Source: an uncultured Acidobacteriota bacterium (GTDB taxonomy: Bacteria > Acidobacteriota > Thermoanaerobaculia > Gp7-AA8 > CAVUJZ01). From it: a stretch of DNA of 64,000 bases. The position numbers were made by a program, and so were the translations under genes. The stretch spans positions 2,099 through 66,098 of the forward strand of contig CAVUJZ010000010.1 of NCBI GenBank assembly GCA_963741905.1, written 5' to 3'. The stretch's first letter is position 1, and the number at the start of each line of letters is the position of its first letter. The notes beneath the pieces were generated by a model. That model had not been told where the DNA came from. It saw nothing but the letters and a program-made list of their open reading frames with translations, and searched no databases. Below are positions 7,727 through 25,090 of the stretch, one piece after another.

Positions 7727-9010
7727 ATGGCTGAGATCATCATGCCCAAGATGGGCGACGCGATGACCGAAGGAAAGGTCGTCCAGTGGTACAAGAAGGC
7801 GGGAGACTCCGTCAAGAAGGGCGAGCCGATCCTGGAGATCGAGACGGACAAGGTCAATCTCGATCTCGAGGCGGAAGAAGACGGCGTTCTGGGCAAGATC
7901 GAGGTCGAGGCTGGTTCCATGGTGGACGTCGGAACCCGGCTCTCCTGGATCGGCGATGGCGCCGGAGCGCCGCCGAAGAAGGCCGCGAAGAAGGAAGAGA
8001 AGAAGGCCGCGAAGAAGGAAGAGAAGAAGGAGGAGCCGACCGCGGTCGAGCCGGTGCCGGCGCAACCTCCTGCCGAGGCGCCGCCTGAGCAGGCGGCACC
8101 GGCAGCGCCTCAGCCATCTCGGACGGCGGCGGTTGAATTCGTCCGCTCCTCTCCGCTGGCTCGCCGGATGGCGAAAGACCTCGGCGTCGAGCTGAGCTCG
8201 GTGGCCGGGAGTGGCCCGGGAGGGAGGGTGATCGCCGCGGATGTGAAGAAGGCGTCGGAGCAGAAGCCTCGAGCACGGGCCGCAGGCGCCCCGCCGGCTC
8301 AGGCGTCGATGCCTCCGGCCGCGGGTCTCGAGGAGAAGGAGATTCCACTCTCCGGAATGCGGCGGACCATCGCGCGACGGTTGAGCGAGTCGATCGGACC
8401 GATCCCGCACTTCTTCCTGACCATCGATCTCGATGTGACCGACCTGATGCGAACCCGCGCGCAGTTGAACGACATCCAGCCGGTGAAAACGAGCGTGAAT
8501 GACTTCGTGATCCGAGCTGCCGCACTGGCGATCCTGCATCATCCGAATGTGAATGCGAGCTTTACCGGAGAGTCGATCCGGCAGCACGGGCACGTCCACA
8601 TGGGCATTGCGGTGGCAACGCCGGAGGGTCTGCTCACGCCGGTGATCCGGGATGCGGACCAGCAGTCGGTTCCGCAGATCGCCTCCGCGTCGCGGGATCT
8701 CGCCGAGCGGGCGCGAAACCGCAAGCTCAAACCGAACGAATACGAAGGCAGCACCTTCACCATCTCCAACCTCGGGATGTTCGGCATCGAGGAGTTCACC
8801 GCAATCATCAATCCTCCCAACTCCGCGATTCTTGCGGTCGGGTCGGCGATGAGCAGGCCGGTCGTCGTGGATGGAGAGATCGTGGTGCGCGAACGGATGA
8901 AGATCACCATGTCCTGCGATCACCGGGTGATCGATGGTGCGGCGGGCGCGGAATATCTGAGGACGCTTCGGCAATATCTCGAACAGCCTCTGCGACTGAT
9001 CGTCTCCTGA
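7727..9010 (+). CDS. Dihydrolipoamide acetyltransferase (E2): lipoyl domain, Lys/Glu/Ala/Pro linker, E3-binding domain, catalytic domain
   Basis: Lipoyl motif EIETDKV, PSBD-like SPLARRMAKDLGV, and catalytic DHRVIDGA near the C-terminus. Confidence 0.9.
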   Translation: MAEIIMPKMGDAMTEGKVVQWYKKAGDSVKKGEPILEIETDKVNLDLEAEEDGVLGKIEVEAGSMVDVGTRLSWIGDGAGAPPKKAAKKEEKKAAKKEEKKEEPTAVEPVPAQPPAEAPPEQAAPAAPQPSRTAAVEFVRSSPLARRMAKDLGVELSSVAGSGPGGRVIAADVKKASEQKPRARAAGAPPAQASMPPAAGLEEKEIPLSGMRRTIARRLSESIGPIPHFFLTIDLDVTDLMRTRAQLNDIQPVKTSVNDFVIRAAALAILHHPNVNASFTGESIRQHGHVHMGIAVATPEGLLTPVIRDADQQSVPQIASASRDLAERARNRKLKPNEYEGSTFTISNLGMFGIEEFTAIINPPNSAILAVGSAMSRPVVVDGEIVVRERMKITMSCDHRVIDGAAGAEYLRTLRQYLEQPLRLIVS

Positions 9011-9166: not shown

Positions 9167-9616
9167 ATGAGTGATCGAAAGTACAAACAACGAGGATACA
9201 TGGAGAGCGGGACATCATCGTCCTCGGGAGGTCGCAACCACGACCGCCCGCCGATGAAGGAACGGCTCGAGGGGGCACCCCGGGGCAGAACTGCGGGAGG
9301 GTTCGGTCCGGAGGTCTTCAAGTGCGCACGGTGCGGACGTCTCCAGCGAACCCTCGGCGAGGTGGAGCCTGCGACCACCTGCGAATGTGGCGCGGATCTG
9401 CATACCTGCACGAACTGCCGCCTGTTCGACACCTCGGCGCGATGGGAGTGCCGCGAGGAGTCCATTCCGGCCCGTGTCGCGCCGAAGGATTCCAGCAACC
9501 AATGCGAGTTCTTCGCTCCCCGGATCGTAAAGGATCTCACCGCGGACAAGGGGAGTGCCCAGGTGCGGACCCCCGATGATGCGCGGAAGGCCTTCGAGAA
9601 TCTCTTCAAGAAGTAG
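9167..9616 (+). CDS. Hypothetical Cys-rich (zinc-ribbon-like) protein
   Basis: The track ORF starts at 9110, but ATG 9167 (MSDRKYKQRGY...) is the likelier start. Paired cysteines CARCG...CECG...CTNC...C suggest zinc ribbons. No family assigned. Confidence 0.55.
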   Translation: MSDRKYKQRGYMESGTSSSSGGRNHDRPPMKERLEGAPRGRTAGGFGPEVFKCARCGRLQRTLGEVEPATTCECGADLHTCTNCRLFDTSARWECREESIPARVAPKDSSNQCEFFAPRIVKDLTADKGSAQVRTPDDARKAFENLFKK

Positions 9617-9625
9617 TCCGTCCCG

Positions 9626-11170
9626 ATGCCACCCACTCTTCAGGAGAATCTGACGCGTCTTCCCCTGTTGCGGATTCTTCTCGCCATCATCACGGGGGTC
9701 GCTCTGGGACTTTCCTTTCCCGGGTTCGGCCTGACCAAACTGGCGTTTCTGGCCTTCATTCCGCTGATCTGCGCGGTGGTGACCGCCCGGGGAGCGTGGG
9801 GGGCCTTCGGCCTGGGCTGGACCGCGCTGACGGTCACCTGGCTGATCAATGTTCCCTGGGTCATCGCAGTGATGAAGACGCACGGGGGGATCCCACTGTC
9901 GGTCGGAATCACCCTTTACGTCGCACTGGCGATGGTTCTTGGGCTGTACGGAGCGTTTTTCGCCGTGCTGGTCTGGTGGCTCCGTCTGGGCGAACGGTTC
10001 GGGCCCTGGATGATGATTCCGCTGGCGTGGTCGGTCTCCGAGTACGCCCGGGCGCACCTGATCAACGGCTTTCCGTGGAATCTGCTGGCCGAGGCCATCG
10101 TCGACACCACCTTCATCCAGGTGGACCGCTTCGTGGGCCCTTACGCCATCGGTGCCCTGATGACGGTTCCGTCGGTGATCATCGCCTGGAACATCATCCA
10201 GCCGATGCCGAAGCGGAAGCCGGTGATCTCGCTGATCTGGCTCGCGATCTTCCTGATCGCCTGGGGCGTCATCGGCGGGATGGTGATGGTTCAGGAACAG
10301 AGCCGGATCCGCAACGAGGAAAAGACCACGGTGGCTCTTCTGCAGCCCAACATCTCCCAGCAGATGCGCTGGGATGAGGGAAACCTCTACGACATCTTCA
10401 GCCGGATGATCGAGATGACCGATTCGGCGATCGCTCAAGGTGCAAAGACGGTGATCTGGCCCGAGTCGACCGTACCGCTGAGCTTCGCCACCACGGACTT
10501 TTACCGCGACTGGGTCGAAAGCACCTCCCGTGAGCGGGATGTCAACATCATTCTCGGCTCGGTCGCGGAAGATCCGAAGGATCATACGAAGATCTGGAAT
10601 TCGGCTTATCTCGTCTCCGACGGGACCATCATCAGCCGGTACGACAAGATGAAGCTGGCTCCGTTCGGCGAGTACGTTCCGTTCCGGCGCCTGCTTTCAT
10701 TCGCACCGAAGCTGGTCAAGGATGTCGGCGAATTTCAGTTTGGAACCAACAGTCACCCTCTGAAAGGTCGCTTCGCCTACGGCCCCGCGATCTGCTACGA
10801 GATTCTTTATCCCGAGGTCGTGGCGAACCAGGTGCGGCATGGTGCGGACCTGCTGGTGACCATCACGAACGATGGATGGTTCGAGCGCACCGCGGCGCCC
10901 GAGCAGCATTTCGATGGGGCACGGCTGCGGGCGATCGAGACGGATCGCTGGCTGGTGCGCTCTGCGACCACCGGAATCACGGCCATTGTTGACCCGACCG
11001 GTAGAATCGTGGAGAGGCTGCCGGTGGATCAGCAGGCGATGATCGTCGGCGGCGTCGCCGCGAGAACGAATGAGACTTTGTACGTGAGGTTCGGCGACTG
11101 GTTCGCCATCGCATCGATCATTGCGGTGGCGGCATTCGTGATCCTCCGAAGGAGACGGAAAGATGCGTGA
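9626..11170 (+). CDS. lnt: Apolipoprotein N-acyltransferase
   Basis: 514 aa. Multi-TM N-terminal half plus a CN-hydrolase domain (VIWPES...ICYE...NDGWF). Confidence 0.9.
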   Translation: MPPTLQENLTRLPLLRILLAIITGVALGLSFPGFGLTKLAFLAFIPLICAVVTARGAWGAFGLGWTALTVTWLINVPWVIAVMKTHGGIPLSVGITLYVALAMVLGLYGAFFAVLVWWLRLGERFGPWMMIPLAWSVSEYARAHLINGFPWNLLAEAIVDTTFIQVDRFVGPYAIGALMTVPSVIIAWNIIQPMPKRKPVISLIWLAIFLIAWGVIGGMVMVQEQSRIRNEEKTTVALLQPNISQQMRWDEGNLYDIFSRMIEMTDSAIAQGAKTVIWPESTVPLSFATTDFYRDWVESTSRERDVNIILGSVAEDPKDHTKIWNSAYLVSDGTIISRYDKMKLAPFGEYVPFRRLLSFAPKLVKDVGEFQFGTNSHPLKGRFAYGPAICYEILYPEVVANQVRHGADLLVTITNDGWFERTAAPEQHFDGARLRAIETDRWLVRSATTGITAIVDPTGRIVERLPVDQQAMIVGGVAARTNETLYVRFGDWFAIASIIAVAAFVILRRRRKDA

Positions 11171-12270
11171 CGGGATGCCGGAAAAGATCGATGAGCTGAA
11201 AGAACGGATGACTGCGATTCGAGGTTATCTTTGACCTCGACAGTGCGCAGAAAAGCCTGAAGGAAATCGAGCAGCAGATGTCCGCCGATGGCTTCTGGAA
11301 TGACCAGGAGCGGGCTCAGGAGGTCGGACGCAAGCGGGCCCGGATCGAAAAGCGGCTCCAGACCGGCAGATCTCTCGAGGAGAAGAACGAGGAGATCAAC
11401 GTTCTCCTCGAACTGGGGAAAGAGGGAGAGGACGTCACTGCCGACCTCGAAAAGCTGCTGACTCAGCTCGAAAAGGACATCTCCGAGGTGGAGATGCGGA
11501 TGAAGCTGTCCGGTGAGCACGACGACCGCGACGTCATCTTCTCGATTCATCCGGGAGCAGGGGGGACCGAGTCCCAGGACTGGGCGGACATGCTGCTCCG
11601 GATGTATCTCCGCTACTGCGAGCGGCACGACTTCGAGACGGAAATGGTCGAGTATCAGGCGGGGGAAGAAGCCGGGGTGAAGAGCGTGACCTTCATGGCC
11701 CGCGGCGACTACGCATACGGCTATCTCAAGAGTGAGCACGGGGTGCATCGGCTGGTGCGGATCTCGCCCTTCGATGCGAACAAACGGCGACATACCTCCT
11801 TCGCCTCCGTCTACGTCTATCCCGACATCGACGAGGAGATCGAGATCGAGGTTCAGGACAAGGACCTGCGGATCGACACCTACCGTTCCTCCGGGGCGGG
11901 AGGGCAGCGCGTCAACGTCACCGACTCCGCGGTGCGCATTACCCATCTGCCGACGGGTCTGGTCGCCACCTGCCAGAACGAGCGCAGTCAGGGGCGCAAC
12001 CGCGAGACGGCGATGAAGCTTCTCAAGGCCAAGCTCTACCAGCTCGAATTGGAGAAACGTCAGGAAGAGCAGGCGAAGCTGGAAGGGGAAAAGAAGGAGA
12101 TCGGGTTCGGCAGTCAGATTCGATCCTATGTCCTCCAGCCCTACCAGCTCATCAAGGACATGCGCACCGGCTACGAGGTGGGAGATGTTCAGCGGGTGCT
12201 CAACGGCGAGCTCGACGGCTTCATCGAGGCCTATCTCGGCCAGAAGGCGAGAACATCGGCGGCGGAGTAG
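11163..12270 (+). CDS. prfB: Peptide chain release factor 2 with programmed +1 frameshift: join(11163..11231,11233..12270)
   Basis: Frame 0 from ATG 11163 reads MRDGMPEKIDELKERMTAIRGYL and ends at CTT TGA C (11229-11235), with SD-like GAGG 3 nt upstream. This matches the classical prfB recoding site. The +1 frame continues DLDSAQKSLKEIEQQMSADGFWND... and contains GGQ (SGAGGQRVN) and SPF (RISPFD). The track lists only 11278-12270. Confidence 0.9.
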
Positions 12271-12280
12271 CCCGGAACGG

Positions 12281-13669
12281 GACAAGTTCGGGTGGCGAAA
12301 AAGGTGGCTTGACGCTGCCGAGGATCGAAGCGGCAACGGTGGGGTAGTCGATGGTGAATCGACCGCGCCGCGGTTGAGTCTCGGGAGTCCAGGGATTCAG
12401 GCCGGAATCATCCCACCGCCATCTTCGTCCGCACGCCGCGCGCTTCGCGCTTGCCGCGCGGGAAGTTTGTCGAGGTTTCATGGGCTGCGCAGGGATCCCT
12501 TTTCTCCTGAGTTGGAACCGCGTCGCGGGAGCGGGCGTGGGAACGCCCGCTCCACCTGCACCGGGCGTCTCGCAGGTGGCCGAACTTTGTCACGGATGCG
12601 GCGGGATGCCGATCGTACTCGGGATTGCGGCGGCGAGCATCCGGGACAAGTTCGGGTGGCGAAAAAGGTGGCTTGACGCTGCCGAGGATCGAAGCGGCAA
12701 CGGTGGGGAAGTCGATGGTGAATCGACCGCGCCGCGGTTGAGCCTCGGGAGTCCAGGGATTCAGGCCGGAATCATCCCACCGCCATCCTCGTCCGCACGC
12801 CGCGCGCTTCGCGCTTGCCGCGCGGGAAGTTTGTCGAGGTTTCATGGGCTGCGCAGGGATCCCTTTTCTCCTGAGTTGGAACCGCGTCGCGGGAGCGGGC
12901 GTGGGAACGCCCGCTCCACCTGCACCGGGCGTCTCGCAGGTGGCCGAACTTTGTCACGGATGCGGCGGGATGCCGGTCGTACTCGGATTGCGGCGGCGAG
13001 CATCCGGGACAAGTTCGGGTGGCGAAAAAGGTGGCTTGACGCTGCCGAGGATCGAAGCGGCAACGGTGGGGAAGTCGATGGTGAATCGACCGCGCCGCGG
13101 TTGAGTCTCGGGAGTCCAGGGATTCAGGCCGGAATCATCCCACCGCCATCCTCGTCCGCACGCCGCGCGCTTCGCGCTTGCCGCGCGGGAAGTTTGTCGA
13201 GGTTTCATGGGCTGCGCAGGAATCCCTTTTCTCCTGAGTTGGAACCGCGGCGCGGGAGCGGGCGTGGGAACGCCCGCTCCACCTGCACCGGGCGTCTCGC
13301 AGGTGGCCGAACTTTGTCACGGATGCGACGGGATGCCGGTCGTACTCGGATTGCGGCGGCGAGCATCCGGGACAAGTTCGGGTGGCGAAAAAGGTGGCTT
13401 GACGCTGCCGAGGATCGAAGCGGCAACGGTGGGGAAGTCGATGGTGAATCGACCGCGCCGCGGTTGAGCCTCGGGAGTCCAGGGATTCAGGCCGGAATCA
13501 TCCCACCGCCATCCTCGTCCGCACGCCGCGCGCTTCGCGCTTGCCGCGCGGGAAGTTTGTCGAGGTTTCATGGGCTGCGCAGGAATCCCTTTTCTCCTGA
13601 GTTGGAACCGCGGCGCGGGAGCGGGCGTGGGAACGCCCGCTCCACCTGCACCGGGCGTCTCGCAGGTGG
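12281..13669. repeat. Tandem array of about 3.8 copies of a 363-bp GC-rich, hairpin-rich unit, flanked by the 9-bp direct repeat CCGGAACGG (12272-12280 and 13670-13678)
   Basis: The motif GGGACAAGTTCGGGTGG recurs at 12279, 12643, 13006 and 13369 (periods 364/363/363). By eye, copies 2 and 3 differ at 4 positions. Confidence 0.9.
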
Positions 13670-13720
13670 CCGGAACGGACAGAGTCCGCCTACCATGGTC
13701 CAGTGCTCTCGTCATCCGCC

Positions 13721-14197
13721 TCACTCCTCCAGCAGGAGGTTCTGAATGCTGAGCGTGGCGGTAATCAGGGACAGTGCCGCGAAGGTCCAGATGAATCGGG
13801 TCGAGATCGGGATGAGGTGGGCACTTCCGGTGATCAGATCGGCCAGACGGAACTGAACGACCCAGTGGTTCAGCGTCGGCCACTGCCATGCGAGCAATGC
13901 CGCCCACGCCAGCGCCACGCATCCCCAGGCGACCTGCTGAGCGAGGGTCACCGGGCGAGAGGCGCGCTCCGCGGCATCCCGATTTCTCATCAACTGAGCC
14001 TTCAGCCAGATCAGGCCGGGGTCCGGTAGCGGTCCCCATTCCAGGGGCGCACCGGAGAGATCCTTCATGACGCCGTCGGTCTCCACCGCCAGCGAGCAGG
14101 TTTCGCAATCAGCGATGTGCAGAGCCAGAGACTCGGTCATCGTTCCTTCGACGACGGCGCTCAGTACCTCGTCTTCGTATCGGCATCCTCGTTTCAT
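13721..14197 (-). CDS. Anti-sigma factor (zf-HC2-like N-terminus, one TM segment)
   Basis: 158 aa. H-x3-C-x2-C-like motif (LHIADCETC). 4-bp overlap with the upstream ECF sigma gene. Confidence 0.7.
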   Translation of the reverse strand: MKRGCRYEDEVLSAVVEGTMTESLALHIADCETCSLAVETDGVMKDLSGAPLEWGPLPDPGLIWLKAQLMRNRDAAERASRPVTLAQQVAWGCVALAWAALLAWQWPTLNHWVVQFRLADLITGSAHLIPISTRFIWTFAALSLITATLSIQNLLLEE

Positions 14198-17677: not shown

Positions 17678-18754
17678 TTACTGCTTCGCCGCGTCGTTCT
17701 GAGCGAGTGCCTTCTGAATGGCTTCGTCGAGTGCCTGCCCTTCGCTACCGAACTCGACCGGCTTTCCATTGATCCAGAAAGTCGGCGTGGCACTCACCTC
17801 CAGAGTCATGGCCGCGCCGAGCCCCTCCAGGATCTGATCCCGAACCTGGTCGGAGGCGATGTCGCGATTGAAGCGCTCCAGATCGAGGTTCTCCCCTTCG
17901 ACGAACCCCCGGACGAAATCCTCCAGGGCGAAGTTGTTCAGCTCGTCCTGGTTGTCGTAGATGCGCGCCTTGTATCGCCAGAAGGCTTCGGGGCTCTGCA
18001 TCCAGATTGCCCGGCCCATGATCGCGGCCGGCAGAGCCCAGGGATGATGGCTGAACAGAGGCATGTCGACACGATGAAAGCTGATCCGGTCGCCGTACTT
18101 CTGAACGAGGTCCCAGACGTGGGTCGAGGCGCGCTTGCAGGAGGGACACTGGAAATCGGAGAACTCCACGACCTGAACCGGCGACGCGGCGGCGCCGTGG
18201 TGCGGTGCCCTGGCCAGAACGTCGTCGAGATAGCCGAGGCGCTCCTTCGCAGCCTGGTCCCTGGAATAGAAGTGGCCGGGGAAAAACATCGTCCCCGCCG
18301 GATCGACCTGTCCCACCATCGGAACCCTGCCATACTCGCTGGTTTCGTTCACGGTCACGGGAAGGAGTCCTTCGTCCGTTTTTGTCTTTCCGACCGTGAC
18401 CGAGAGGGTCTCGGCGAGATTATCCCAGCCGAACGAGCTGATGCGCTCTTCGATCGAGCCTTTCCGGTCCTGGAGAAACCAGGGATTGCCGAGAAAGATC
18501 TTTCCATTCGGCGCGGTGACGGCAAGAAAGCGTCCGCCGCACCATGGCGAGGAATGCTCCAGCTCGATGACGGTTCCTTTCATCCCCTCGGGCAGCTTCT
18601 GCTCATAGGGTGAGCTGCTGGTTTTCGTTCCGGGACAGAACGAAAGGAACTGGGTGATGAAAGGCTCGAGATCCGGCGGGAGATCGGCGTGAGCCGGAAT
18701 TGCCGGGAGGAGCAGGGCCGCGAACAGGAGGGCGAAAATCGGTCGTCTCATCAT
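17678..18754 (-). CDS. Secreted two-domain thiol:disulfide oxidoreductase (N-terminal unknown domain plus DsbA-like thioredoxin fold)
   Basis: Signal peptide MMRRPIFALLFAALLLPAIPAHA (start moved to 18754). CPSC active site in FSDFQCPSCK. Confidence 0.75.
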   Translation of the reverse strand: MMRRPIFALLFAALLLPAIPAHADLPPDLEPFITQFLSFCPGTKTSSSPYEQKLPEGMKGTVIELEHSSPWCGGRFLAVTAPNGKIFLGNPWFLQDRKGSIEERISSFGWDNLAETLSVTVGKTKTDEGLLPVTVNETSEYGRVPMVGQVDPAGTMFFPGHFYSRDQAAKERLGYLDDVLARAPHHGAAASPVQVVEFSDFQCPSCKRASTHVWDLVQKYGDRISFHRVDMPLFSHHPWALPAAIMGRAIWMQSPEAFWRYKARIYDNQDELNNFALEDFVRGFVEGENLDLERFNRDIASDQVRDQILEGLGAAMTLEVSATPTFWINGKPVEFGSEGQALDEAIQKALAQNDAAKQ

Positions 18755-18764
18755 GTCGTGAGGC

Positions 18765-19961
18765 TCAAACGGCGGTTGTGCTCCGATTGTTTCCGGCACC
18801 TGGCCTGAGAAACAGCAGCACTGCCGCGGCCAGGGCGAGGCCGGCCCCCGCGTGAAACGCCGTCGTGGGCGTGAAGCGTTCCCACAGCCACCCGAACAGA
18901 GCGGTTCCCGCCAGTGTGCCGAGACCGGCCGTCATTGCATAGATCCCGAAGGCCTTGCCTCGCAGCTCGCTCCGGATCGGGATGGAGATCCAGGCTCGTT
19001 CCGCCCCTTCGGTCAGGGCGAATGGAAACGCGTACACGATGAAGAGAATCAGAAAGGTGGAGCGGCTGGAGGAGAGAGGGAAGATCAGGTAGACCCCGGC
19101 GTAGATGGTCCATCCGGCGGCGAGCATCCACCGGCGGTCCATTCGATCGGAGAGAGCCCCGGCATGGGTGGAAAAGAGCGCCTTGACCGCGTGATGCGCC
19201 GCCCAGAGCAGCGGGATCCAGGCGGTCGCCACGCCCGCGTCCCGGGCGCGGAGGATCAGATAGACGTCGCTGGAGTTCGCGAGATAGAAGACGAGAATCG
19301 GCAGCAGAGAGCTCCAGAACGGTGCGGGAAGCGGTCCTCGAGCGAGGGAAAGGCGTTGCGGAGTCATCGGCTCGGTCCGCCGTTCCTTCAGGAAGAGGAA
19401 CAACATCAGGACACCGACGGCGGAGGGAATCACGGCGATGAGGAAGATGGTGCGGAACGGAAGATGGAACCATCCGAGGAGCGCCGCGGCAATCAGCGGG
19501 CCGAAGACTGCACCGGTGTGGTCCAGCGCCCGGTGGAGGCCGAACGCCCGCCCCCGATCCTCCACCGGGGTGACGTCGCAGATCATGGCGTCCCGTGGGG
19601 CGGTACGAATGCCCTTCCCGGTCCGATCGAGCAGCCGCCCGGCGAGCACCACCGGCCAGGAACCTGCCAGGGCAACGATCAGGCGGGCAACCGAGGCGGT
19701 GGCATAGCCGCCGGCGACCAGCGGCTTCCGCCGGGGCATTCGATCCGACACGTATCCGGAGATGAGCTTGAGAAATGCGCCGATCGTGTCCGCGCTGCCT
19801 TCGATCAGCCCGATCAGCAGAGGAGCCGCTCCCAGGGTACCCGCGAGGAACAGCGGTAGCAGAGGAAAGATCATGTCGCTCGAGATGTCGTTGAGCATCG
19901 CGGCGACGCCGAGGAGCACGACCTGGGGTCGGATGCGATGGCGGAGGGGCTTGCTCATCAC
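18765..19961 (-). CDS. MFS transporter
   Basis: 398 aa, about 12 hydrophobic segments, GRLLDRTGKG-type loop motif. Confidence 0.85.
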   Translation of the reverse strand: MMSKPLRHRIRPQVVLLGVAAMLNDISSDMIFPLLPLFLAGTLGAAPLLIGLIEGSADTIGAFLKLISGYVSDRMPRRKPLVAGGYATASVARLIVALAGSWPVVLAGRLLDRTGKGIRTAPRDAMICDVTPVEDRGRAFGLHRALDHTGAVFGPLIAAALLGWFHLPFRTIFLIAVIPSAVGVLMLFLFLKERRTEPMTPQRLSLARGPLPAPFWSSLLPILVFYLANSSDVYLILRARDAGVATAWIPLLWAAHHAVKALFSTHAGALSDRMDRRWMLAAGWTIYAGVYLIFPLSSSRSTFLILFIVYAFPFALTEGAERAWISIPIRSELRGKAFGIYAMTAGLGTLAGTALFGWLWERFTPTTAFHAGAGLALAAAVLLFLRPGAGNNRSTTAV

Positions 19962-20842
19962 CGATCAGCGGGGTCCGCAGCTTCGTCTTGATCCAGCCTC
20001 CAGCCGCCGCTGTAGACATTGAATCGGCCGTCGCGGACGAATCCGAGAAGCGTCATGCCCCAGGTACGGGCGAGATCGATCGCCAGGCTGGATGGCGCGC
20101 CCACCGCGGCCATCGCCGGAATCCCCGCGACCAGTGCCTTCTGGACCAGCTCGAAGCTGGCCCGTCCGCTCACCATCAGGATGTGCCGCCCGAGCGGGAC
20201 GTCTCCTCGCTCGAGCGCCGCCCCCACCAGCTTGTCGAGAGCGTTGTGGCGGCCGACGTCTTCGTGGACCGCCACGAGCGTACCCCGGGCGTCGAACAGA
20301 GCCGACGCGTGGAGCCCTCCGGTGCAGTCGAACAGCTCCTGGCGCTCGCGGAGCGCTTCCGGCAGCCGGTGAATCACCCCCGGGCCGATCCGGAAGCCGT
20401 CACGGTCGATTGGCCGGAGGCCGGTCACCCGTAGCGCCTCAATGGAGGTTTTTCCGCAAACGCCGCAGCTCGAGCTGGTGTAGAAGTGCCGCTCGAGGCG
20501 CGACAGATCCACGGCTCCTCCCTCCGCGAGCACCACACGTACCGTGTTGTGAAAACCGGAATCGGGAGCGGGAGGTCCGCAGGTCCCGATCGAGGAGATG
20601 TCCGCCGCACTCCGAACGATCGATTCTCCGAACAGAAACCCTCTGGCGAGGTGGAAGTCCTCACCGGGCGTGCGCATGGTGATCGAGATCGCCTTCTCCA
20701 GGTGCTCACCGTCTCGATCGAATGCGAGACGGATCTCCAGCGGCTCCTCGATCGCCACCAGGTCATCTGCGGAGCTTCGTCGTGAGCTGGAGATCCGCTC
20801 CACTCGAACCGGCGCCGCGGACGCTATGGGATTGCTGGCCAT
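19958..20842 (-). CDS. fdhD: Formate dehydrogenase accessory sulfurtransferase FdhD
   Basis: 294 aa. SSCGVCGK active-site motif and GGLHASALF...GRHNALDK. GGAGGA lies upstream of the ATG. Confidence 0.9.
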   Translation of the reverse strand: MASNPIASAAPVRVERISSSRRSSADDLVAIEEPLEIRLAFDRDGEHLEKAISITMRTPGEDFHLARGFLFGESIVRSAADISSIGTCGPPAPDSGFHNTVRVVLAEGGAVDLSRLERHFYTSSSCGVCGKTSIEALRVTGLRPIDRDGFRIGPGVIHRLPEALRERQELFDCTGGLHASALFDARGTLVAVHEDVGRHNALDKLVGAALERGDVPLGRHILMVSGRASFELVQKALVAGIPAMAAVGAPSSLAIDLARTWGMTLLGFVRDGRFNVYSGGWRLDQDEAADPADR

Positions 20843-20903
20843 GGATCCTCCGAATCCTACCGCGAATCTGCAGAGTTCGCGCCGGGTCGGTGAGAGGCTA
20901 AGA

Positions 20904-21071
20904 GGTGAGACGGTGAGACGGTGAGACGGTGAGACGGTGAGACGGTGAGACGGTGAGACGGTGAGACGGTGAGACGGTGAGACGGTGAGATGGTGAGACG
21001 GTGAGACGGTGAGACGGTGAGACGGTGAGACGGTGAGACGGTGAGACGGTGAGACGGTGAGACGGTGAGAC
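20904..21071. repeat. Short tandem repeat array A: (GGTGAGAC) x 21
   Basis: 168 bp of perfect 8-bp units with a single variant (GGTGAGAT near 20990). A degenerate copy lies at 20889-20896. Confidence 0.95.
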
Positions 21072-21150
21072 GGGTGGCCCCGGGGGGGAGCCGGAGGCCC
21101 AACGCCAACCAGACGTGCCTCCCACCCTCCACGCCCGATCTACTTCTAAC

Positions 21151-21347
21151 CTCCAACCTCTAACCTCCAACCTCCAACCTCCAACCTCCAACCTCCAACC
21201 TCCAACCTCCAACCTCCAACCTCCAACCTCCAACCTCCAACCTCCAACCTCCAACCTCCAACCTCCAACCTCCAACCTCCAACCTCTAACCTCCAACCTC
21301 CAACCTCTCAACCTCTAACCTCTAACCTCTAACCTCTAACCTCTAAC
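21151..21347. repeat. Short tandem repeat array B: (CTCCAAC)n core flanked by CTCTAAC variants, about 28 units
   Basis: 197 bp = 27 units of 7 bp plus one 8-bp variant (CTCTCAAC), read directly. Confidence 0.95.
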
Positions 21348-21455
21348 CTTTCACCTTCTGCCAGGCGATCCCTCCGATTCCGGGCCCGCACCTTCCCCCG
21401 GACCGTGCTCCCCGATATGATTCGCCCCGCAAACAACTGAAGAAGGGAGTATCTG

Positions 21456-22337
21456 ATGGCAGACATCAAGAAGGTCGGAGTGCTCGGCTGTGGGCTGATG
21501 GGCTCCGGAATCACTCAGATCGCGGCCCAGGCCGGGTATCAGACGGTGGTGGCCGAGGTCGAACAGAAGTTTCTCGACAAGGGACGGGCGGGGATCGAGA
21601 AGAGTCTCGGCCGTTTCGTCGAAAAGGGAAAAATGACCGCGGAGGATCGCGACGCATGCCTCGGACGGGTCCAGACCACCACGAAGCTGGAGGATCTGGC
21701 GGAGTGCGACATCGTGGTCGAAGCGATCGTGGAGAATGCCGAGGTGAAGCGATCCACCTACTCGGCGATCGACAGCATCGTGAAAAAGGATGCGATTTTC
21801 GCATCCAATACCTCCTCGCTGACGATCACCGAGCTGTCGATGGCCACGGCTCGGCCGAAGCAGTTCGTGGGGCTGCACTTTTTCAACCCGGTGCCGATGA
21901 TGAAGCTCGTCGAGGTGGTTCGAACGATCCTCACCTCGGATGAGACCTTCGACCGAGCGTTCGCCTTCGCGAAGTCGCTCGGCAAGGAACCGATCGCCTG
22001 CCGCGACAACTCCGGATTCATCGTCAACCGTCTGCTGGTGCCCTATCTTCTCGATGCGATCCGGGCCTACGAAGAGGGCGTCGGCTCGATCGAGGACATC
22101 GACAAGGGGATGGTGCTCGGCTGCGGTTATCCGATGGGCCCGTTCACCCTGCTCGACTTCGTCGGACTCGATACCACCTACTACATCACCGAGGTGATGT
22201 TCGAGGAGTATCACGAAAAGCGGTTCTCTTCGCCTCCGCTGCTCCGCAAGATGGTGCTGGCAGGCCGGCACGGCCGGAAGAGCGGCGCAGGGTTCTACGA
22301 CTACTCCGGCGAAAAGCCGGTGGCGATGGATCGGTAG
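21456..22337 (+). CDS. hbd: 3-hydroxybutyryl-CoA (3-hydroxyacyl-CoA) dehydrogenase
   Basis: VGVLGCGLMGSGI Rossmann motif, HFFNPVPMMKLVEV, 293 aa. Confidence 0.9.
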   Translation: MADIKKVGVLGCGLMGSGITQIAAQAGYQTVVAEVEQKFLDKGRAGIEKSLGRFVEKGKMTAEDRDACLGRVQTTTKLEDLAECDIVVEAIVENAEVKRSTYSAIDSIVKKDAIFASNTSSLTITELSMATARPKQFVGLHFFNPVPMMKLVEVVRTILTSDETFDRAFAFAKSLGKEPIACRDNSGFIVNRLLVPYLLDAIRAYEEGVGSIEDIDKGMVLGCGYPMGPFTLLDFVGLDTTYYITEVMFEEYHEKRFSSPPLLRKMVLAGRHGRKSGAGFYDYSGEKPVAMDR

Positions 22338-22460
22338 TTCTGGAGTTCTGGAGTTCTGGAGTTCTGGAGTTCCGAGTTCTGAAGTTCTGGAGTTCCGGAG
22401 TTCCGAGTTCTGAAGTTGTGGAGTTCTGAAGTTGTGGAGTTCTGGAGTTGGAGTTCTGGA
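22337..22460. repeat. Short tandem repeat array C: (GTTCTGGA)n, about 16 units with variants (GTTCCGA, GTTCTGAA, GTTGTGGA, GTTGGA)
   Basis: Starts on the last base of the hbd stop codon TAG (22335-22337) and ends 10 bp before the crt SD. Confidence 0.95.
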
Positions 22461-22482
22461 GCTGGCGAGTGAGGAGGAACTG

Positions 22483-23274
22483 GTGGGATACGAGAATCTG
22501 GAAAATGTGAAGACGGAGAATCGGGACGGGATCCTGGTCGTCACCATCGACAGGCCGAAGGTTCTGAATGCGCTCAACGCGCAGACGGTCGAAGAGATCG
22601 GCCGGATCTTCGACGAGGCGCGGGACGATGCCGCGGTCAGGGCGGTGATCGTGACCGGTGGTGGTGAGAAGGCATTCGTGGCCGGCGCGGACATCAACGA
22701 ACTGGCGAAGAAGGATCCGAACAGCGGGAAGATCACCTCGGAGCGCGGCCAGCAGATTCTTTCGCGGATGGAGCGGTTTCCGAAGATCGTCATCGCGGCG
22801 ATCAACGGTTTCGCTCTGGGCGGAGGATGCGAGATCGCCCTGGCCTGCCACATCCGGATCGCCTCGGACAAGGCCCAGATCGGACTGCCCGAGGTGACCC
22901 TCGGGATCATTCCGGGATACGGCGGCACGCAGCGGATGGCCCGGCTTCTCGGAAAGGCGAAAGCGCTGGAGCTGATCTGCACGGGTGAAAAGATCCGGGC
23001 GGACGAGGCCGAAAAAATCGGCCTGGTGAACCGGGTCGTTCCGGCGGAATCGTTGATGGAAGAGTGCGAGAAGATGGCGAGAACCATCATGTCTCGGGGC
23101 CCGCTGGCCGTGCGTGCGGCGATCGAGGCGATCAACAGCGGCATGGAGATGCCTTTCGAGGAGGGACAGTTCCTCGAGGCGACGCTGTTCGGGCTCCTCT
23201 GTGCTTCAGAGGACCAGAAGGAAGGGATGAACGCGTTTCTGGAGAAGCGGCCGGCAGAGTTCAAGGGAAAGTAG
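22483..23274 (+). CDS. Enoyl-CoA hydratase (crotonase family)
   Basis: I chose GTG 22483 because GAGGAGGA lies at 22471-22478. The track start at 22432 lies inside the repeat array. Motifs: VTGGGEKAFVAGADI, ALGGGCEIALAC, AFLEKRPAEF. Confidence 0.85.
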   Translation: MGYENLENVKTENRDGILVVTIDRPKVLNALNAQTVEEIGRIFDEARDDAAVRAVIVTGGGEKAFVAGADINELAKKDPNSGKITSERGQQILSRMERFPKIVIAAINGFALGGGCEIALACHIRIASDKAQIGLPEVTLGIIPGYGGTQRMARLLGKAKALELICTGEKIRADEAEKIGLVNRVVPAESLMEECEKMARTIMSRGPLAVRAAIEAINSGMEMPFEEGQFLEATLFGLLCASEDQKEGMNAFLEKRPAEFKGK

Positions 23275-23365
23275 GTTGTTCGAATCGCCGTGCGGGCCGG
23301 GGAAGTTCATTCCGCCGGCCCGCGTTGACGAAGGGTACCGAAATCAGCTCCCGGGGGAACGATCG

Positions 23366-24616
23366 ATGGAAGAGCGAGTCGACGATCTGATCTATGACTG
23401 GAATGTGGCCGGCGAGAAGCCGGTCTACCCGGGGCGTCCGATCCAGTTCGATGACGAGACGCTGCGGGACGGGCTCCAGTCCCCGTCAGTCAAGGATCCT
23501 TCGATCGAGGAAAAGCTCCGGATCCTCCATTTCATGGAAGAGATCGGGGTGGATTCTGCCGACATCGGTCTTCCGGGCGCCGGTCCGCACGTTCAGGCGA
23601 CCGTGCAGCGTCTGGCCGAGGAAATTCGCGATCAGAAGATGAAGGTCGCGGCGAACTGTGCGGCCCGGACGCATCAGAACGACATTCGACCGATCGCCGA
23701 GATCTCGCAGCGGGTGGGGATTCCCATCGAGGCCTGTACCTTCATCGGTTCCTCCCCGATCCGTCAGTTTGCCGAGGAATGGGATCTCGACTGGCTGCTG
23801 GAGCAGACGACCAAAGCGGTTCGATTCGCGGTGGGCGAGGGACTTCCGGTGATGATGGTCACCGAGGACACCATCCGGGCGAAGCCCGAGGACGTGGAGA
23901 AGATCTACACCGCGGCCATCGAAGCCGGTGCGACCCGCGTTTGTGTTTGCGATACGGTCGGCCACGCGACCCCCTGGGGCGCGCGGAATCTGGTGCGCTT
24001 CGTTCGTGGCATCGTCGAGCGGGTCAATCCGGAGGTGGGCATCGACTGGCACGGGCACTCGGACCGGGGGCTGGGGGTGATCAATACCATTGGAGCGATC
24101 GAGGGCGGTGCCGACCGGGTTCACGGCTGCGCTCTCGGGATCGGCGAACGGGTCGGCAACACTCCGATCGATCTGTTGATGGTCAACCTCAAGCTCCTGG
24201 GCTGGATCGACAACGACCTGCACAGCCTCCCTGAATATGTGAAGTTCGTCTCCCGGGCGACGGATGTGATGCTGACGGATCAGTATCCGGTCTTCGGGCG
24301 GGACGCTTTTCGCACCGGAACCGGTGTTCATGCGGCGGCGATCATCAAGGCGAAGATGAAGGGGAGCGACTGGCTTGCGGACCGCGTCTACTCCGGAGTT
24401 CCGGCGGGAGAGTTCGGCCTGGAGCAGATCATCGAGGTCGGGCCGATGTGCGGCCTGTCGAATGTCATTTACTGGCTGCAGGTTCACGGGTATCCTCAGG
24501 AGGAAGATCTGGCGAAAGAGATCTTTGGCAAAGCAAAATCCTCGAACCGGATTCTGACGGACGAGGAGCTTCACGGGGCCGCGCGCCGCTGGCTCGACCT
24601 GCAGGCGACGGGGTGA
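23366..24616 (+). CDS. LeuA/HMGL-like family protein (2-isopropylmalate/homocitrate synthase-like aldolase-type TIM barrel)
   Basis: [12 protein letters not shown] and [28 protein letters not shown] motifs. ATG 23366 preceded by GGGGGA. Exact substrate not determinable. Confidence 0.75.
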
Positions 24617-24943
24617 GTGGTGAGAGTGAGCGGTGAGAAGTGAGCGGTGAGAAGTGAGCGGTGAGAAGTGAGCGGTGAGAAGTGAGCGGTGAGAGTGAGC
24701 GGTGAGAAGTGAGCGGTGAGAAGTGAGCGGTGAGAGAGTGAGCGGTGAGAAGTGAGCGGTGAGAGTGAGCGGTGAGAAGTGAGCGGTGAGAAGTGAGCGG
24801 TGAGAAGTGAGCGGTGAGAAGTGAGCGGTGAGAAGTGAGCGGTGAGAAGTGAGCGGTGAGAAGTGAGCGGTGAGAAGTGAGCGGTGAGAAGTGAGCGGTG
24901 AGAAGTGAGCGGTGAGAAGTGAGCGGTGAGAAGTGAGCGGTGA
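24613..24943. repeat. Tandem repeat array D: (GTGAGCGGTGAGAA)n, about 23.6 units of 14 bp with a few 13- and 15-bp variants
   Basis: The first unit contains the TGA stop (24614-24616) of the upstream gene. An inverted partial unit at 24972-24983 pairs with 24930-24941 (12 bp). Confidence 0.95.
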
Positions 24944-25003
24944 TCGGTCGCACGGCAGAACAGTCGTCTCGACCGCTCACTTCTGACCTCTCGCCGTCTT
25001 TCT

Positions 25004-25090
25004 GCCCGAGTGGCGAAATTGGTAGACGCAGCAGACTCAAAATCTGCCGTCCTCCCGGACATGCCGGTTCGAGTCCGGCCTCGGGCACCA
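25004..25090 (+). tRNA. tRNA-Leu (anticodon CAA), long variable arm, encoded CCA
   Basis: Acceptor GCCCGAG/CTCGGGC, anticodon stem-loop GCAGA-CTCAAAA-TCTGC, variable arm GTCC..GGAC, T arm GCCGG-TTCGAGT-CCGGC, then A-CCA. Confidence 0.9.

Follow-up and report, generated by a model that had tools for sequence, protein, structure and literature searches.

Long 7-bp and 8-bp tandem arrays between fdhD and hbd of an uncultured Acidobacteriota bacterium are probably expanded arms of a lineage-typical paired heptamer element

Tandem arrays of very short units recur in the intergenic regions of several bacterial groups. Here, we analyse two of them, array A with an 8-bp unit and array B with a 7-bp unit, which lie next to each other in the spacer between the divergent genes fdhD and hbd of an uncultured Acidobacteriota bacterium (Thermoanaerobaculia; GenBank assembly GCA_963741905.1, contig CAVUJZ010000010.1, positions 2,099 to 66,098). 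This whole stretch of 64 kb is called the window, and all coordinates are window positions. We propose, with a probability of roughly 0.6, that A and B are the arms of a paired heptamer element typical of this lineage that were hyper-expanded by slippage and that have no demonstrated regulatory role.

Rehm et al. (2015) described overwhelmingly intergenic heptamer repeats in Xanthomonas (GGGAATC) and Nostoc (GGGGAYT), the function of which is unexplained (PMC4692102). In Xanthomonas, 70-75 cases per genome consist of two convergent sites on opposite strands, that is, of inverted pairs, and the sites have at most 14 units; between close species the length and the sequence of the heptamers differ, while the position and the single or paired type are kept (PMC4692102). 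The window arrays resemble them in being intergenic tandem heptamers, and the Xanthomonas sites, like the two further window arrays C and D that are described below, hug the end of the upstream open reading frame (ORF). Unlike Xanthomonas, in which one dominant unit with a GGG tract that forms G-quadruplexes (G4) is found per genome, the window has four units within 4 kb with G runs of at most two, its arrays comprise 16-48 units, and arrays A and B are not convincingly complementary.

In Geobacter metallireducens, Aklujkar et al. (2009) catalogued 'putative global regulator binding sites' of classes 1-3 (PMC2700814). Each site is paired with a second one on the other strand, the distance between the two being variable, and contains 3-5 tandem copies of GTTGCTYN, TCTCCGTS or MTYCTGA; several families occur per genome, both between and within operons, and 49 elements are made of four heptamers (PMC2700814). 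They were interpreted, as a proposal only, as binding sites of a protein such as IHF or HU (PMC2700814). The short elements that we found in relatives of the window have the same architecture and some near-identical units, for example GGTTGCTG and CTTCTGC in the relative L010, whereas the window arrays are 5-10 times longer than the 3-5 units of Geobacter.

An excess of heptamers among long prokaryotic simple sequence repeats (SSRs), with polymerase slippage as the proposed origin, was reported by Mrazek et al. (2007) according to the account in PMC4692102. Related cases are the short tandemly repeated repetitive (STRR) sequences of cyanobacteria and the TAACTGA heptamers of Beggiatoaceae (PMC4679880), and such repeats reach 26-43 copies in cyanobacteria and Bacteroidetes. 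The window arrays share with long SSRs, STRR sequences and TAACTGA repeats that they are non-coding, near-perfect head-to-tail 7-8-mers of environmental bacteria with large genomes, and the heptamer period is also dominant in the Acidobacteriota loci studied here. In Beggiatoa, the start codon follows the repeats within a few nucleotides and a role in translation was suggested for them, whereas array B lies upstream of a promoter. Known phase-variable SSRs, such as the ATCTTTC heptamers of hmw1A and hmw2A and those of hif or of the nadA type, are located in the promoter spacer or the 5′ untranslated region (5′ UTR) of surface or virulence genes in pathogens that are adapted to a host. Like the hmw repeats of H. 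influenzae, array B is a heptamer SSR that precedes a gene within a regulatory region, and slippage could change its length; unlike them, it is situated before the core promoter, and the gene is a metabolic one. Taken alone, A and B are ordinary, since arrays of their kind have been recorded in Xanthomonas, Geobacter, cyanobacteria and Beggiatoaceae, and in no case was a function demonstrated. The window arrays are a new and unusually long example of this known, functionally unexplained kind.

The arrays and the sequence between them are arranged as follows.
20889..20903, + strand: two degenerate outer units of array A (GGTGAGAG and GCTAAGA)
20904..21071, + strand: array A, (GGTGAGAC)x21, G-rich on the + strand
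21072..21150, no strand assigned: central non-repeat spacer of 79 bp, its left part G-rich, its right part C-rich with degenerate xCCAAC-like units
21151..21347, + strand: array B, 28 units of CTCCAAC/CTCTAAC, without G on the + strand

Twenty of the 21 units of array A are exact, the remaining one being GGTGAGAT at 20984-20991, and the two degenerate units adjoin it on the 5′ side. Array B is composed of 20 CTCCAAC units, seven CTCTAAC units and one 8-mer, CTCTCAAC (21305-21312). Its 17 central units are identical and the variants are confined to the edges, which is the classical signature of slippage. Together, the arrays occupy 365 bp (168 + 197) of the 613-bp fdhD/hbd spacer (20843-21455), A being separated from the fdhD ATG by 61 bp and B from that of hbd by 108 bp; the coordinates, copy numbers and spacer share given in the original prediction, which had been made from the letters of the window, proved exact to the base. 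On the + strand, A contains 50% G and 12% C and is 75% purine, and B contains 0% G and 53% C, its minus strand reading (GGAGGTT)n; the base composition thereby bears out the predicted switch of the purine-rich strand between the arrays.

Tandem Repeats Finder (TRF) scored A and B at 337 and 346, with 94-96% matches. Because GGTGAGAC occurs 23 times on the window + strand, 20 of them inside array A, against approximately one expected occurrence, a chance origin of the array is excluded. Both arrays consist of near-perfect head-to-tail units within the 5-11-bp range of long SSRs, far above chance, and both are non-coding, located between genes whose predicted identities as fdhD and hbd were confirmed by Pfam (FdhD-NarQ and 3HCDH_N/3HCDH, respectively). 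The ORFs that cross the arrays matched no Pfam family above threshold, a sub-threshold Hint_2 match being noise, and the array region had no Rfam match; the search for known RNA families returned the tRNA gene alone, even at an E-value cut-off of 1. A CRISPR array was rejected as an identity, since the units are contiguous 7-8-mers without spacers, as opposed to 24-48-bp repeats with unique spacers. REP/REPIN elements (repetitive extragenic palindromes) are dispersed imperfect palindromes of 20-40 bp that have a GTAG or CGTC tag and are associated with a RAYT transposase. In comparison with them, A and B are direct repeats without a palindromic unit; no search for a RAYT gene was made.

The gene order DsbA-MFS-(FdhD)<>Hbd-Crt-HMGL-tRNA-Leu is kept in 16 relatives (L001-L016, 239 kb in total), and we compared their orthologous spacers with those of the window. 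The spacer upstream of hbd measures 37-160 bp in most relatives versus 613 bp in the window, the hbd-crt spacer 7-182 bp versus 145 bp and the HMGL-tRNA spacer 15-85 bp versus 387 bp, and the excess in the window is essentially the arrays. The purity of A and B and their extreme length relative to these spacers fit a recent expansion, as suggested earlier, or a rapid turnover. In five relatives, the region upstream of hbd holds a palindrome with tandem 7-8-mer arms, of which the left one is rich in purines and the right one in pyrimidines; these palindromes make up most of the divergent spacer and end 2-6 nt before the putative -10 box of hbd, which is described below. The arms are as follows.
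L004: left (GAAGAGT)n, right (CACTCTT)n
L008: left (GAACGAT), right (TCATCGT)
L013: left (GAGGGAT), right (ATCCCTC)
L012: left (GTTGGGAT), right (ATCC[C/T]AAC)
L006: left (CACAGAGG), right (CTCTGTG)

The right arm of L012 resembles the B unit CTC(C/T)AAC and has the same C/T variable position. A nested pair was found in L011, in which the arm proximal to hbd, with the units CTACTGT/CTACTGA, reaches directly to the -10 box and has expanded to 11 copies. Elements are also present in the hbd-crt spacer of L005, L007, L010, L011 and L016 and in the HMGL-tRNA spacer of L010 and L016. In L002, a pair follows immediately after the tRNA-Leu gene. The L010 pair in the HMGL-tRNA spacer, (AAGGCAG)8.6 and (CCTTCTG)4.6, ends 6 nt before tRNA-Leu. 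The comparison with related genomes that had been recommended for this locus suggests that A and B belong to a lineage-wide class, which the original prediction had missed, short paired 7-8-mers being found at the same spacers.

To characterize this class, 64 further Acidobacteriota loci (1.2 Mb) were added to L001-L016. Among arrays with at least 3.5 copies, heptamers accounted for 35 of 59 in L001-L016 and for 95 of 144 in the further loci. An inverted partner within 200 bp was present for 37 of the 67 arrays of 6-9-mers in L001-L016, and the 5′ arm contained more G than C in 23 of the 25 listed pairs (21 of 22 without duplicates). Because a palindrome reads alike on both strands, the G-rich 5′ arm is a true polarity. 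It is kept in the window by A and B, which lie 79 bp apart in convergent orientation on opposite strands, and by array D and its partner. In a set of 212 arrays (1.5 Mb of relatives plus the window), 180 had 3-4.9 copies, the median was 4.1 and the 95th percentile 8.3. The four window arrays have the highest copy numbers of the whole set (16, 23, 29 and 48), and A and B, with 21 and 28 units, lie beyond the approximately 3-5 units per arm (up to 14) that are typical of paired elements.

The 159 heptamer arrays share only 85 distinct canonical units, and some units recur across species: AACGACC was found at 11 loci, ACAGCTG at seven, AACTGAC at five and AAGGCAG at four Thermoanaerobaculia loci. 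Some resemble the heptamers of Geobacter (GTTGCTYN, MTYCTGA) and Beggiatoa (TAACTGA). Elements occur roughly once per 4-8 kb in Acidobacteriota (e.g., L010 3470-20349 and L004 1737-19378), and dispersal of a unit is clear in L004, L010 and L011. Logan contigs of hot-spring metagenomes (runs X25-X28) break at the L011 arrays (9600-9965), where the depth exceeds that of the flanks by a factor of 100-1000 and the loose ends have no relation to one another; this pile-up indicates that the L011 units are present at very many loci in that community. One divergent Logan contig of low depth lacks 419 bp of L011, which comprise the entire region with the arrays. The copy number peaked at about four, the fixed G-to-C polarity and the units common to several species argue that the short form is constrained and is not random slippage. 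We found no description of such elements in Acidobacteriota in the literature.

One element of this class was observed in Terriglobia relatives. In L043 (12883-12910), L062 (11525-11553) and L054 (~12370-12520), (GGTCGTT)x4 is located at a gene end and its partner (AACGACC)x4 abuts the next ATG. The gene that follows lacks a Shine-Dalgarno (SD) sequence, and a promoter-like pair TTGACC...TACACT is situated in the loop between the arms. From its N-terminus (MGTRRKSRELV...), we take this gene to be a candidate NusB-like gene.

The original prediction had overlooked that A and B are part of a set of four arrays in adjacent spacers. The additional features, the two arrays having been called by TRF, are as follows.
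22336..22461, + strand: array C, ~16 units of AGTTCTGG and variants, 81% matches
24613..24943, + strand: array D, ~24 units of GTGAGCGGTGAGAA, beginning at the stop codon of the HMGL-like gene
24971..24993, + strand: short C-rich inverted partner of D (CCGCTCACTTCT...)

Array C begins at the hbd stop codon and extends almost to GAGGAGG, the SD sequence of crt, and array D ends 60 bp before the tRNA-Leu(CAA) gene. The D unit includes GGTGAGAA, which is one mismatch away from the A unit, and GGTGAGA is common to A and D and has no other copies in the window. The last D units and the partner are reverse complements that form a predicted RNA hairpin of -61.3 kcal/mol (z -4.33, none of 200 shuffles as good), which ends 10 nt before the tRNA-Leu gene. 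Because this hairpin precedes tRNA-Leu and a pair is found at the same spacer in L010, D is, from its sequence and position, the orthologous element with a 5′ arm expanded approximately six-fold. At a low TRF threshold, no other 7-8-mer array was detected in any other intergenic region of the window.

These data suggest the following course of events. The ancestral element would have been a short inverted pair of tandem 7-8-nt units with a G-rich 5′ arm, a C-rich 3′ arm and ~3-5 copies per arm. Each arm would then have been enlarged independently, unit by unit, by replication slippage, to 21 and 28 copies, whereby the expanding unit was presumably homogenised, older variants were stranded at the edges and the arms drifted to different units. 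The neighbouring arrays C and D may have arisen by the same process, D having kept a short complementary arm and its hairpin. The main physical effect would be that the spacer between the two promoters was stretched from an ancestral 40-160 bp to 613 bp, roughly five-fold. The assignment of A and B as arms draws on the orthologous position, the right polarity and the L012-like B unit, as well as on the lone 8-mer of B, the reverse complement of which (GTTGAGAG) agrees with the edge unit GGTGAGAG of A at 7 of 8 positions. The arrays, where they lie relative to the conserved -10 box, the class in relatives with its polarity and the outlying copy numbers are observations. We infer that A and B descend from a paired element, that they grew by slippage and that any regulatory effect is weak or absent, and we think that the arrays are mostly a tolerated by-product rather than a switch.

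Several observations weigh against this interpretation. The complementarity between A and B amounts to 74-78% at the outer edges only, the A-B duplex fold is not better than that of shuffled sequence (z -1.18) and the fold of the central spacer is not significant (z +0.28). Because the arms are not convincingly complementary, the common descent of A and B is plausible at most, and similarity between low-complexity 7-8-mer units is weak evidence. In the relatives, the C-rich arm abuts the -10 box, whereas in the window 68 bp of unique, C-rich sequence intervene. No short elements of 3-5 copies were found in the other ~25 intergenic regions of at least 90 bp in the window, so this genome is not obviously rich in the class. 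Furthermore, many of the relatives are metagenome-assembled genomes from short reads, in which long arrays break contigs, and the outlier status of the window arrays is therefore exaggerated; the long-read MFD assemblies in the set also reach no more than ~11 copies. Separately, the idea that A and B form a single long hairpin or cruciform was rejected, as the fold is not better than shuffled and the central spacer is unstructured.

To locate the promoters relative to the arrays, the 125 bp that precede hbd in the window were aligned with the corresponding sequences of the 16 relatives. A box of the type TAGAAT/TACAAT followed by a GC-rich discriminator (e.g., cTAGAATGCGCGCGC) was present in 16 of 16 relatives, within ~45 nt upstream of the hbd start in 14 of them, most often at ~20-45 nt, and further upstream in L009 (~100 nt) and L015 (~60 nt). 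From this conservation, we take the box to be the -10 element of hbd. The corresponding candidates in the window are as follows.
21416..21421, + strand: TATGAT, candidate hbd -10 box, 34 nt before the ATG, at the position of the box conserved in 16/16 relatives
20854..20859, - strand: TAGGAT, doubtful candidate fdhD -10 box, 11 nt from the ATG, overlapping the SD sequence GGAGGA

Array B ends 68 bp upstream of TATGAT. Because the conserved box lies downstream of B, the array is situated upstream of the hbd core promoter and consequently outside both the -35/-10 spacer and the 5′ UTR. No conserved -35 element was found in L001-L016, in which variable hairpins or heptamer arms occupy its position. 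On the fdhD side, TAGGAT mirrors the hbd box in the inverted pair I4; its role as a promoter element is doubtful and, because it overlaps the SD sequence, the fdhD promoter is still not located. An alignment of the fdhD upstream region with L001 was uninformative, as L001 has an extra small ORF there. A sigma-70 consensus scan of 20.5-25.3 kb yielded no promoter, and the hbd -10 box emerged solely from the comparison of relatives. Two ideas were dropped. Array B contains CCTCC ~20 times and might have sequestered the hbd ribosome binding site from within the 5′ UTR as an anti-SD sequence; this was rejected because the conserved -10 box is downstream of B. The other idea, that C-rich arms as a rule lie directly next to a -10 box, holds for the hbd orthologues and for approximately three further cases, but not for most pairs.

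The promoter position bears on the suggestion that the arrays constitute a contingency locus in which slippage tunes or switches the transcription of fdhD, hbd or both. Long pure SSRs are intrinsically hypermutable, these ones are located in a regulatory region between divergent genes, a long 5′ UTR of fdhD could include array A as the promoter of that gene has not been located, and in H. influenzae the expression of genes is reported to be modulated by heptamer SSRs that precede them (PMC8262952, PMC12721329). However, B lies 68 bp upstream of a -10 box conserved in 16/16 relatives, so that a change in its copy number would alter only the distance between the divergent promoters, and the predicted effect on the promoter geometry of both genes is unsupported as it was stated. 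The genes concerned, encoding the FdhD sulfurtransferase and beta-oxidation/butyrate enzymes, are housekeeping genes of an environmental bacterium and not surface or host-interaction genes, and the equally expanded arrays C and D are located at gene 3′ ends, where promoter logic fails; we consider phase variation improbable. There is a small chance that the arrays serve as a multi-site platform, in which the 7-8-mers bind a DNA or RNA factor and long arrays provide high-capacity binding, titration or insulation between the two promoters; recognition by a factor was proposed for the Geobacter sites and the Beggiatoa TAACTGA repeats as well. The fixed polarity and the peak at 3-5 copies (180/212 arrays) would suit such sites, as would the limited number of units for the 159 heptamer arrays (85), their identical recurrence between species and the fact that elements at orthologous positions keep their unit despite diverged flanks. 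The window, in contrast, has four different units side by side, its extreme length outliers are the opposite of a constrained site, and the units at the hbd site differ wholly between species with 81-84% identical Hbd.

Non-B DNA, that is, G4/i-motif, slipped or triplex structures that would take up the supercoils generated by transcription from the divergent promoters, is very improbable in our view. The strand asymmetry is strong, with a G-free + strand in B and 75% purine in A, and the related G-rich heptamers of Xanthomonas and Nostoc fold into G4 in vitro (PMC4692102). In the window, however, G runs never exceed two and fall short of the G tracts of at least three, repeated at least four times, that G4 formation calls for; the strands are not homopurine/homopyrimidine mirror repeats, and single-strand folds are no better than shuffled. 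The absolute G4Hunter values of 0.63 (A) and 1.01 (B) are below the customary threshold of ~1.2. That an assembler or polisher produced the arrays, or inflated their copy numbers, we regard as most improbable. Short-read assemblies cannot cross such arrays, as the breaks of the Logan contigs at L011 illustrate, but the source contig of 235,932 bp carries arrays with specific internal variants and degenerate edges, four different arrays follow the same pattern, and the class recurs in many relatives that were assembled independently, among them complete chromosomes from long reads. The reading of A and B as expanded arms of a paired element is the one that we retain.

The useful result is the context, namely a class of paired elements in Acidobacteriota, a dominant soil phylum. 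The locus permits short arms in relatives and arrays of 20-50 units to be compared at the same spacer with respect to transcription, termination and mRNA stability. A practical consequence is that such arrays break short-read assemblies of these genomes. Tentatively, and as a possibility to which we give little weight, the short paired heptamers may represent a conserved cis-acting system that a trans factor recognises or a mobilising enzyme spreads, the giant arrays marking a failure of the constraint locally or genome-wide. If true, the window would be a natural 'loss-of-control' genotype of a widespread, never-explained element class.

The genes that flank the arrays are as follows.
19958..20842, - strand: fdhD, first gene of an overlapping operon of fdhD, a major facilitator superfamily (MFS) gene and a DsbA-like gene; Pfam FdhD-NarQ, 1.3e-61
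21456..22337, + strand: hbd (3-hydroxyacyl-CoA dehydrogenase), SD sequence AAGGGAG at ~21443-21449; Pfam 3HCDH_N/3HCDH, 8e-67
22483..23274, + strand: crt (enoyl-CoA hydratase); Pfam ECH_1, 1e-74
23276..24616, + strand: HMGL-like gene; Pfam HMGL-like, 1e-43
25004..25090, + strand: tRNA-Leu(CAA), 3′ of the HMGL gene in 10/10 relatives scanned

The fdhD operon is characterized by ORF overlaps with 18765-19961 and 17678-18799. The start of crt is probably the GTG at 22483, with the SD sequence 7 nt upstream, the called start (22432) being too far upstream; the alignment with the relatives begins only at residue 16-22 of the long ORF. Similarly, the HMGL-like gene probably starts at the ATG at 23366 and not at the called 23276, as relatives align from residue 27-31, and the corrected starts would probably leave a crt-HMGL spacer of ~91 bp without an array. 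Hbd is 80-84% identical in amino-acid sequence to homologues of uncultured Thermoanaerobaculia (Acidobacteriota). The FdhD of the window forms a singleton cluster, with the next-best protein 66% identical. A metagenome scan with FdhD was swamped by the conserved GRHNALDK pattern and gave a best match of 58% identity and no close strain, and searches of sequencing runs with window sequence gave no match. The closest relatives found thus have at most 66% (FdhD) and 84% (Hbd) identity.

Three further observations were made in the window. Downstream of prfB, a tandem repeat of ~363 bp is present in 3.8 copies that are 99% identical (12278-13672). It has at least two stop codons in every frame; its longest ORF (12480-13745) has no Pfam match, Rfam yielded none for the repeat, and nothing similar was found in any of the loci compared. 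The prfB gene itself (11278-12270; release factor 2) is preceded by the classical programmed +1 frameshift site CTTTGAC (11229-11235) with an SD-like GAGG before it, and the Pfam PCRF match begins at profile position 13 of the downstream frame. Finally, a 12/24-bp repeat, GAAGAAGG(C/A)..., at 7975-8035 is located inside the called ORF 7727-9010 and is probably a coding repeat rich in Lys, Glu and Ala.

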